From: a virus
Taxonomy: Duplodnaviria; Heunggongvirae; Uroviricota; Caudoviricetes
Strand: one strand, 5' to 3'
Virus record (IMG/VR): IMGVR_UViG_2636415712_000005
Location: 1-9,660 of that record
DNA length: 9,660 bases
Position 1 is the first letter of the stretch. The number at the start of each line of letters is the position of its first letter. Made by a program: the position numbers and the translations under genes. The notes beneath the pieces are model-generated. The model ran no database searches, had not been told where the DNA came from, and saw only the letters and a program-made list of their open reading frames with translations. Positions 1-2,108 of the stretch are shown piece after piece.

Positions 1-28
1 TCAACAAAAACTGGCCACCGAGTTAGAG
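1..28. repeat. IS911 terminal inverted repeat (orfB-proximal end), truncated by the window edge
   Basis: TGGCCACC core at 12-19 is the inverted counterpart of GGTGGCCA at 1215-1222 in the other terminal repeat. The first ~8 bp of the repeat are outside the window. Confidence 0.6.
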
Positions 29-921
29 TTTTTCCAGTATCGATTTTCCGATTCGTTTGGGGGTAACCCACCGTTATATTCGTGCGGTCTTAGTGCACTG
101 TAATATCCAACGATATAGTCCGTTATGGCGTGAGCTGCCTCGCTGAAGCTTACGTAACCCACCACCGGCATCCATTCGTTCTTCAGACTCCTGAAGAAGC
201 GTTCCATTGGGCTGTTATCCCAGCAGTTTCCGCGCCGGCTCATACTCTGTCTGATCTGGTATCGCCACAATAACTGCCGGAACTGCCTGCTCGTATAATG
301 ACTGCCCTGATCGCTGTGGAACATCACCCCGCCGGGCTTACCACGGGTTTCCCATGCCATTTCCAGCGCTTTCATGGTGAGCCTGCTGTCCGGCGAGAAC
401 GACATGGCCCAGCCCACTGGTTTTCTTGCGAACAGGTCGAGAACAACGGCGAGGTACGCCCAGCGCTTACCCGTCCAGATATAGGTCACATCACCGCACC
501 ACACCTGATTTGGCTCGGTCACGGCGAACTGCCTTTCAAGGTAGTTAGGGATAGCAACATGTTCATGACCACCACGTTTATACCGGTGAGTCGGCTGCTG
601 ACAGCTGACCAGCCCCAGCTCTTTCATGAGCCTGCCAGCAAGCCAGCGTCCCATCTGGTAGCCTCTCCGGGTTGCCATTGTGGCGATGCTTCTTGCTCCG
701 GCCGAACCGTGGCTGATGCCATGTAGCTCAAGTACCTGACTGCGTAATACAGCCCGTCTGCCGTCTGGTTTTTCAGGACGGTTTTTCCAGTATCTGTAGC
801 TGCTGCGATGAACCCCGAACACATGGCAGAGTGTGACCACAGGATAATGCGCTCTGAGTTTCCCGATTATCGAGAACTGTTCAGGGAGTCTGACATCAAG
901 AGCGCGGTAGCCTTTTTTAAT
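1..921 (-). CDS. IS911 transposase OrfB frame (DDE domain), expressed as an OrfAB fusion by -1 frameshifting; frame opens at an ATT codon at 921-919
   Basis: The frame is open from the stop at 927-925 down to TGA at 3-1. The ORF track shows 279 aa from the ATG at 840, but my manual translation upstream gives ...[35 protein letters not shown]..., so the frame overlaps the orfA 3' end in the -1 phase. The DDE motif region is intact with no internal stops. Confidence 0.8.
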
Positions 922-1169
922 ATTTCATTCTCCATTTCAATGCGTTGTAGCTTTTTCCTGAGCTCACGGATTTCAATTTGTTCCGGGGTAATGGGGGAGG
1001 CTTTTGGTGTTTTGCCCTGACGCTCATCACGCAGTTGTTTGACCCATCTTGTCATTGTGGAAAGGCCAACATCCATAGCTTTGGCGGCATCTGCCACCGT
1101 GTATTTCTGGTCAACAACCAGTTGAGCGGATTCGCGTTTAAACTCTGCGCTAAAATTTCTTTTTTTCAT
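867..1169 (-). CDS. IS911 OrfA (helix-turn-helix / leucine-zipper transposition regulator, 100 aa)
   Basis: ATG at 1169-1167; the track's 112-aa version starts at an upstream in-frame codon (1205). Sequence [100 protein letters not shown] matches IS911 OrfA as I recall it. Stop at 869-867. Confidence 0.9.
912..918 (-). promoter_or_regulatory. Programmed -1 ribosomal frameshift heptamer A-AAA-AAG of IS911 (orfA to orfB)
   Basis: Plus strand 912-918 is CTTTTTT, i.e. A AAA AAG on the minus strand. In the orfA frame it reads TTA-AAA-AAG (L-K-K of ...[10 protein letters not shown]). The orfB frame is offset by exactly -1 (codon first bases at coordinates 0 mod 3 versus 2 mod 3 for orfA). Confidence 0.75.
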
Positions 1170-1205
1170 TGGAGCACCTGTGTTGTTCTGAGGTGAGCAT
1201 ATCAC

Positions 1206-1241
1206 CTCTGTTCAGGTGGCCAAATTCAGTGTGCCACTTCA
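1206..1241. repeat. IS911 terminal inverted repeat (orfA-proximal end)
   Basis: The IS-outward end at 1241 reads TGAAGTGGCACACTGAATTTGGCCACCTGAACAGAG on the minus strand. It shares the TGAAGTGG...TGGCCACC pattern with the opposite end. Confidence 0.7.
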
Positions 1242-2108
1242 CCTGGCTGGGATTTTGTGTCTGATGCAGAGCGACTGATGTTCTCCCGTGAGCTAAACCG
1301 CGACATGGGCATCAGTTACTTCCTGAACCCTGACGATTACCGCAAAGCAGGCCGCAACCTGGTAGATGGTGACATCTTCGGGCGCGTTCCTGAAGAAGCA
1401 TATCGAAACGGTACTATTCAGCGTCAGATTGCTGGCTTTGATGAAATTCTTCGCTCACCGAAACTTCCGGCAGTTACCAAGTCAACCGCGACTGGTGTAA
1501 CTGTTTCTGGTGCGCAGAAGTTTAAGCCGCAGGCATACACCCTTGATACCGATGGTAACAAAGAGAACGTCGACAACCGTGTTGCAACGGTGACCGTATC
1601 CTCCACCACCGGATTTAAGCGCGGCGACAAAATCAGCTTCATTGGTGTGAAGTTCCTGTCTCAGATGGCGAAGAATGTGCTGACTGATGACGCGACTTTC
1701 TCAATCACCCGTGTGATCGATGGTACTCACATCGAAATCACGCCGAAGCCGATTGCGCTGGATGACGCGTCACTGACAAAAGAAGAGAAGGCTTACGCTA
1801 ACGTAAACACCTCTCTTGCTGATACCACTCCGGTAAACGTTCTGAACGTGGCAACAACCACCGCTAACGTGTTCTGGGCTGATGACTCAATCCGCCTGCT
1901 GTCTCAGCCGATCCCGGTAACCCATGAACTGTTTGCTGGCATGAAAACGTCTTCCTTCAGCATTCCAGGTATTGGTGTTAACGGCATCTTCGCAACGCAG
2001 GGTGATATCAACACTCTGTCTGGTAAGTGCCGTATTGCTGTGTGGTATTCAGCATGTGCTGTACGACCAGAGGCAATTGGTGTTGGTCTGCCTAACCAGA
2101 CCGCGTGA
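1242..2108 (+). pseudogene. 3' fragment (about 288 codons) of a P22-type major capsid (coat, gene 5) gene, interrupted by the IS911 insertion
   Basis: The reading frame is open from the first base after the IS911 end (translation ...[27 protein letters not shown]...) to TGA at 2106-2108. The sequence strongly resembles the C-terminal two-thirds of P22 coat protein as I recall it ([38 protein letters not shown], ending ...GVGLP-QTA). The N-terminal ~140 codons must lie beyond the IS, outside the window. Confidence 0.85.

Follow-up and report, generated by a model that had tools for sequence, protein, structure and literature searches.

The question raised by this locus is whether a P22-like prophage of Shigella flexneri was put out of action by a single insertion sequence (IS) in its coat gene, or whether that gene was hit in a prophage that could already no longer make virions. 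The DNA analysed is a stretch of 9,660 nucleotides (nt), positions 1 to 9,660 of IMG/VR record IMGVR_UViG_2636415712_000005, called the window here, and it matches positions 11-9670 of the S. flexneri draft contig AMJY01000028.1 exactly. The window opens with a copy of the element IS911, which runs directly into the 3' part of a P22-family coat gene. An earlier note on this DNA had proposed that this IS911 copy destroyed the major capsid gene, separated it from the late promoter and thereby left the prophage defective as a virus. With a probability of roughly 85%, the junction forms the left boundary of what is left of a P22-like (Lederbergvirus-type) prophage, an 8-kb fossil bounded by IS elements that lies beside psiF-phoA in the S. 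flexneri chromosome and was unable to make virions already before the coat gene was hit. Related loci, designated by handles beginning with L, were collected by looking up the proteins of the window in public assemblies.

Positions 1 to 1241 are occupied on the minus strand by IS911, a member of the IS3 family, as the earlier note had it; nucleotide identity of 99-100%, termini, open reading frames (ORFs) and Pfam domains all agree. Annotated IS911 copies in Escherichia coli RefSeq genomes are 99.0-99.1% identical to the whole of 1-1241, with the matches ending at 1241-1246, and S. flexneri genomes hold copies that are 100% identical to it. By direct reading of the minus strand, the left inverted repeat (IRL, TGAAGTGGCACACTG...) runs from 1241 to 1206 and orfA from 1168 to 866, while orfB continues down to a TGA at 3-1. 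The slippery motif A6G (AAAAAAG) of the -1 frameshift site lies at about 919-913 on the same strand. The corresponding ORFs, in the 0 and -1 frames, carry the Pfam domains HTH_Tnp_1 (the HTH of orfA) and rve (the DDE/rve domain of orfB). The start of the window removes just the outer 8 nt of the right inverted repeat (IRR), the whole of which is readable in the source contig, and inverted repeats beginning with 5'-TG are present at both ends of the element (IRL in the window, IRR in the source contig). Set against reference IS911, the window copy shares the 99-100% identity, the IRL and IRR termini (TGAAGTGG...), orfA and orfB, the A6G -1 site and the HTH and rve domains, and shows nothing distinctive; it is a full IS911 member on every feature open to testing. 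IS911 is a copy-out/paste-in element that passes through a figure-eight and a circular intermediate (reviewed in PMC7780238 and PMC3219604). A suspicion that IS911 had carried a piece of the coat gene along arose because the E. coli plasmid hits H1-H5 ran 15 nt past the IS, to 1256; it was dropped, the plasmid flank being a chance partial match (ccttccaggtattttt versus cctggctgggattttg).

Positions 1242 to 2108, on the plus strand, hold what is left of a coat (major capsid) gene of the P22 family: its 3' part, with codons 144-431 and the stop codon. The translation of 1242-2105 (288 residues), which had been taken for the C-terminal portion of a P22-like coat protein, matches the Pfam family P22_CoatProtein (PF11651) over positions 145-422 of the 423 in the profile (E = 5e-111). 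Judged by this match, the fragment belongs to that family as a truncated member. Its DNA is 100% identical to the 3' part of intact 431-residue coat genes in other S. flexneri contigs, and alignment with these genes places the break between codons 143 and 144. There is no spacer at the junction: the final base of IS911 is 1241, coat codon 144 (CCT) is 1242-1244, and the window reads GTGCCACTTCA followed directly by CCTGGCTGGG. Codon 144 is CCT in the Shigella allele and TCT in the E. coli phage APC_JM3.2. Codons 1-143 are missing from the reading frame, so the capsid gene is not full length, and the IS911 genes are oriented opposite to it. The earlier reading of this junction, with a coat frame abutted without spacer, about 140 N-terminal codons missing (exactly 143) and an IS in the opposite orientation, was therefore accurate. 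With the coat gene cut at codon 144, this locus cannot give rise to a capsid protein. A consensus scan of 1000-2500 detected no promoter-like site, and the coat fragment is also without a start codon of its own; the 298-residue ORF that starts 30 nt inside the IS has no database record.

Two candidates were rejected here. A deletion between the 13-nt direct repeats CTGGCTGGGATTT, found in the coat gene near codon 60 and at codon 144, was considered as the origin of the junction and ruled out, since about 35 nt of coat sequence would then separate the IS from the repeat, and these are absent from the window. The frameshifted coat genes of L013 and L014 show the same 276-residue ORF, but owe it to the loss of a single base at coat nucleotide 325, which is unrelated to the IS.

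What lies to the right of the junction bears on whether the coat break was decisive. The remnant consists of the truncated coat gene, a small ORF, gp4, gp10, gp26, gp14, gp7, gp20 and a truncated gp16, in that order. The last of these (7478 to 9195, plus strand) encodes a gp16-type ejection protein with an SLT domain in Pfam and is cut after about codon 572 of 911; homology to gp16 ends at 9195, and the ORF continues into IS600 and stops at 9208. An intact gp16 of 911 residues is found in L004-L006. The break at base 9195 is common to L002, L003, L009, L016, L020-L023, L030 and L040. Beyond it, positions 9196 to 9280 (plus strand) are the first 85 nt of IS600, comprising its left end and the start of orfA, at 100% identity to annotated E. 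coli IS600. This copy is interrupted by an IS3-family element (9281 to 9660, plus strand), which shows its left end and orfA, has an HTH_Tnp_1 match in Pfam, runs off the window, and is 99.7% identical to a sequence annotated 'IS3 family transposase'; we take it to be IS629/IS1203. To the right of the IS600/IS629-like block, the source contig carries the chromosomal genes psiF, phoA, iraP and ddlA, and the same remnant lies beside psiF-phoA-iraP-ddlA in many S. flexneri contigs.

The losses extend well beyond the window. In the related S. flexneri copies examined, there were no genes for a tailspike, immunity or regulation, lysis or the small terminase subunit, nor any phage genes past the truncated gp16, and no late-promoter region linked to the late genes was found in the window or in any of these copies. 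A complete virion module is absent, gp16 being cut, the tailspike missing and the best relatives beginning inside the large terminase gene; the intact E. coli prophages L036-L039 show the full set for comparison with the remnant. Because the cut in gp16 is common to the relatives, the tailspike and immunity genes are gone and the best copies start in the terminase, the remnant would have been dead before the coat event. The claim that IS911 in the coat gene made the prophage defective accordingly stands in one half: capsids cannot be made. The other half, IS911 as the cause, does not stand, given the cut gp16 and the missing tailspike, lysis and regulatory genes. Nor is the supposed separation of the coat gene from its late promoter borne out, for even the best-preserved relatives begin inside the terminase gene at another IS911, and therefore no late promoter was left for this copy to separate.

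The position of the left edge varies among the relatives, and IS911 joins the remnant at no fewer than six distinct points. In L040 (CP085202) and L016 (CP037996), IS911, preceded by chromosomal DNA or a group II intron, has its IRR against a large terminase gene cut to about 330-345 codons, and past this truncated terminase come portal, scaffold and an intact coat gene. The IRL stands against the portal gene at about codon 163 in L002 (CP026871), and against a portal gene with 196 codons remaining in L022. In L003 (CP034060), L011 and L025 (CP127081) the IRL stands against coat codon 48, and the far flank of L003 matches the int/xis region of phage SfIV at 99.7% identity. The same codon-48 breakpoint occurs in L019 with IS911 inverted (IRR against coat) and in L007 with three extra bases (CCA). 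In the window, the IRL stands against coat codon 144. A 3-bp duplication is absent wherever both flanks are visible (CAA/TGG in L003, CAA/CCC in L002, TCT/CCT in L040 and TGA/TGG in L019).

The closest comparison is with CP034060. The window departs from it in a clean gap of 288 bp that begins right where the IS stops, the 1,241 nt of the IS and 8,419 nt of phage DNA being 100% identical. The unique DNA of the window, CP034060 and AMJW01 is identical over about 12.5 kb, junction position aside; all differences of the window from the other two lie inside the multicopy IS629-like element, and single-nucleotide polymorphisms give no phylogenetic resolution. Two complete genomes with identical unique DNA have the IS911 end 288 bp upstream, at codon 48, with prophage xis/int beyond and no duplication. 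The exact intact coat protein is found on at least 1000 contigs, compared with 161 for the codon-48 form.

Two further observations concern these left edges. The same codon-48 IS911 breakpoint is present in both orientations, with different far flanks, in L019 (2045-3292) and L003 (6851-8099); the flip is not accounted for by any simple recombination and may be an error of the older 454 draft assembly. In L016 (312-2402), a group II intron reverse transcriptase/maturase gene lies beside 479 nt of IS911, a fragment adjoining the truncated terminase gene, the intron having probably inserted into that IS911 copy.

The junction, the gene content, the right-hand truncation common to the relatives and the set of left junctions are observed directly; from them we infer the order of events and the IS911 reaction behind this junction. 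IS911 has reshaped the left edge repeatedly, by new insertions, by recombination between copies or by adjacent deletions. New copies arriving nearby can recombine with resident ones, and intramolecular events are also known; both give IS-anchored nested deletions without duplications, as the relatives show. The end points seen form a nested set, in the terminase gene, at two portal sites, at coat codon 48 and at coat codon 144, and the window has the innermost.

Several points weigh against this reading. Contigs with an intact coat gene (L020 and L023) are 100% identical to the window, and one simple insertion could derive the window from them, which by sequence is as possible as a single step from the codon-48 form. 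The local history is inferred from other strains, and the source contig ends 2 nt beyond the IS. The silence of the remnant genes is drawn from a consensus promoter scan only.

As to how the codon-144 junction itself arose, one possibility, somewhat short of probable, is a simple IS911 insertion into an intact coat gene. In that case CCT (codon 144, 1242 to 1244) is a candidate 3-bp target duplication, and the DNA immediately past the IS would hold coat codons 1-144, scaffold, portal and the truncated terminase, with the far side reading ...GGCCTGCCT followed by TGAAGTGG. AMJY01000028.1 opens with 'CT' and then the IRR, which fits a CCT duplication, although these are 2 nt only, with a chance match of 1 in 16. 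L007, a sister contig from the same project, likewise has exactly 2 nt outside the IS, but these are 'TT' and match nothing, so the 2 nt may be assembler noise. Weak evidence also comes from a coat fragment of residues 1-144, the expected left-half product with the TGA of the IRR directly after it, which is on record from another S. flexneri assembly (EJJ9886539.1). Its contig is 4,560 nt long, as is the stretch that opens with the first base of L004/L010 and closes with codon 144; that first base lies 1,038 nt upstream of portal, at the point where IS911 meets the truncated terminase in L016 and L040. Additionally, L030 corresponds to window positions 1245-9266 at 100% identity, starting 3 nt past the junction, and suitable targets are available: intact-coat remnants of identical sequence exist (L020 and L023), and the exact coat protein is that found on at least 1000 contigs. 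However, contig ends are not equal to junction sequences, and the other IS911 junctions of the remnant are all without duplication. No exact match to the predicted left junction was found in genome_contigs or metagenome_contigs, neither of which is expected to hold this strain; the right junction had no exact match in genome_contigs, which probably does not hold the strain. Even if simple insertion is true, the claim about the late promoter fails, the upstream terminase having already been cut.

Equally tentative is the proposal that no coat sequence lies beyond the IS, and that the codon-48 form, with xis, IS911 and coat codon 48 in succession, lost another 288 bp adjacent to the IRL. The loss would have come about by an IS911 intramolecular adjacent deletion, or in two steps, a new copy entering codon 144 in the same orientation and then recombining with the old one, and the far side is predicted to read ...GAGCCGCAA followed by TGAAGTGG. 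The clean gap relative to CP034060, with the remaining unique DNA and the chromosomal flank identical, is what such a loss would leave, and the starting form, with xis/int on its far side, is common (the 161 contigs). The deletion in L021, described below, suggests an ancestor that combined the L003 layout with an IS911 end at 1241. Against this, the contig start is 'CT', whereas the xis flank is 'AA', and the coat 1-144 fragment of another strain is left unexplained.

An unlikely intermediate course would reconcile part of this evidence: the coat gene would already have been cut back to codon 48 when IS911 inserted into it and duplicated CCT. The 288 bp of codons 48-144 would then lie between two direct IS911 copies, where the assembly would have broken. 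Both the 'CT' flank and the identity to the codon-48 genomes are accommodated, and it would be explained why the assembler crossed the 1.4-kb IS600/IS629 block yet halted at the far IS911 end. The 96-residue product predicted for the 288-bp piece is not on record, though so small a contig would probably have been discarded; direct IS copies only 288 bp apart should also be unstable. That the junction is an assembly artefact of an IS-rich draft genome is very improbable, for although its exact sequence is on record in one assembly only and the contig starts oddly, 2 nt past the IS, the junction is internal to the contig, L030, an independent assembly, has its break 3 nt away with 8,022 nt matching at 100%, and the L021 deletion ends 3-7 nt away.

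This L021 deletion (2061-2090, Logan SRR8281107) is free of any IS and joins the upstream region of an oac-like acyltransferase gene to the coat gene at window positions 1245-1248, with GGCT microhomology. Its end lies 3-7 nt from the IS911 end of the window, for which chance is deemed unlikely, and the oac region is found to the left of the IS only in the CP034060-type (L003) layout. Independent S. flexneri draft and Logan contigs (L030-L035) begin at window 1243-1248, some with a different downstream haplotype, and N-terminal coat fragments of 141, 144 and 146 residues that end near the junction are on record. The starts of L031-L035 could come from an IS at the site, or from forks where coat alleles that reside together differ (as with C/T at 1242), and were not counted as junction evidence. 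When IS911 forms a figure-eight, the attack is made on DNA 3 nt outside its other end. The breakpoints at 1242-1248 might on this basis be a natural record of IS911 strand-transfer chemistry, although this is a long shot. The L021 junction is exactly what would result from a nick at 1244/1245 that became a break and was repaired through the GGCT microhomology. If true, the remnant, with its nested IS911-anchored end points, would document stepwise erosion of neighbouring DNA by a copy-out/paste-in IS in nature.

The L003 layout shows what may accompany the remnant. Positions 1376-4038 of L003 hold a 207-residue ORF without family match, a gene for a 390-residue Acyl_transf_3 protein (O-antigen acetylase-like) and a fragment of int, which adjoin one another in the manner of a phage attP region. 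This oac-like/int layout therefore links the virion-gene fossil to a serotype-conversion module with int-xis of the SfII/SfIV/SfV type. The IS600'/IS629 composite is also present inside the L003 int gene, in inverted orientation (5978-6062), and the two composites of L003 bracket the segment from xis and IS911 through coat to the truncated gp16.

The remaining genes of the block, all on the plus strand, lie downstream of the coat fragment. Directly 3' of the coat stop codon, the consensus scan found a terminator-like GC hairpin (GGGAGC-TTCG-GCTCCC, 2117-2132) with a T run, together spanning 2117 to 2142, at which transcription arriving from the left would probably end anyway without a phage antiterminator. 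The gene tables of related loci place a small ORF of 74 residues between coat and gp4 (2153 to 2377). Across otherwise near-identical loci its product has 74, 76, 80, 82, 84 or 86 residues, and the annotation of APC_JM3.2 marks a repeat region within it. The 90-residue ORF at 2105-2377, which contains the small ORF, has no Pfam match and no database record. It is followed by genes for a gp4-type head-tail adaptor, or tail accessory factor (2355 to 2855; Pfam P22_Tail-4, E = 1.5e-58), and a gp10-type head closure or DNA stabilisation protein (2855 to 4273; Pfam Phage_stabilise, E = 1e-299). The gp26-type tail needle (4273 to 5070; Pfam Phage_tail_NK) has 265 residues and an Sf6-type knob. A gp14-type protein (5067 to 5525; Pfam DUF2824), a gp7-type ejection protein of 202 residues (5528 to 6136; Pfam P22_gp7 and comparisons) and a gp20-type ejection protein (6146 to 7477; Pfam Inj_translocase) complete the block before gp16. 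In the haplotype of the window, gp26 has a 51-nt in-frame deletion at short repeats (5028-5044), giving 265 residues compared to 282 in L002 and L004, and gp7 has an 84-nt in-frame deletion at short repeats (6050-6061), giving 202 compared to 230. Both deletions are also present in L020 and L022-L023, whose coat gene is intact.

Compared with known systems, the locus is closest in gene order to the E. coli P22-like phages and prophages APC_JM3.2, IME10 and Dewey (Lederbergvirus), which share the order coat-gp4-gp10-gp26-gp14-gp7-gp20-gp16 and 96-98% DNA identity over most of 1243-9195. These relatives are complete, with terminase, portal, scaffold, full coat, full gp16 and tailspike, whereas here an 8-kb internal block only is present. 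In its state of decay it resembles the incomplete, non-inducible oac1b prophage of S. flexneri 1b, which is bounded by IS1 and IS911 (PMC3630932). In both, a block of structural genes without replication, immunity and lysis genes is cut and bounded by IS911 and other IS elements and is not viable; however, contractile-tail genes are found there and P22-like virion genes here, and the chromosomal sites differ (psiF-phoA here). The genome of phage Sf6 also holds an IS911 (PMC3630932).

The locus is thus a case of ordinary IS-driven prophage decay, which is already known biology, and nothing in it falls outside known kinds. It should be annotated as the cryptic remnant of a P22-like prophage, bounded by IS elements and with its coat gene a pseudogene, and not as a prophage recently inactivated by a single IS. 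It is a further example of the erosion of Shigella prophages by IS911, IS600 and IS629, of little importance beyond annotation. The several IS911 end points found in DNA that is otherwise the same could be used to mark lineages of S. flexneri, or as material for the study of IS-adjacent deletions.

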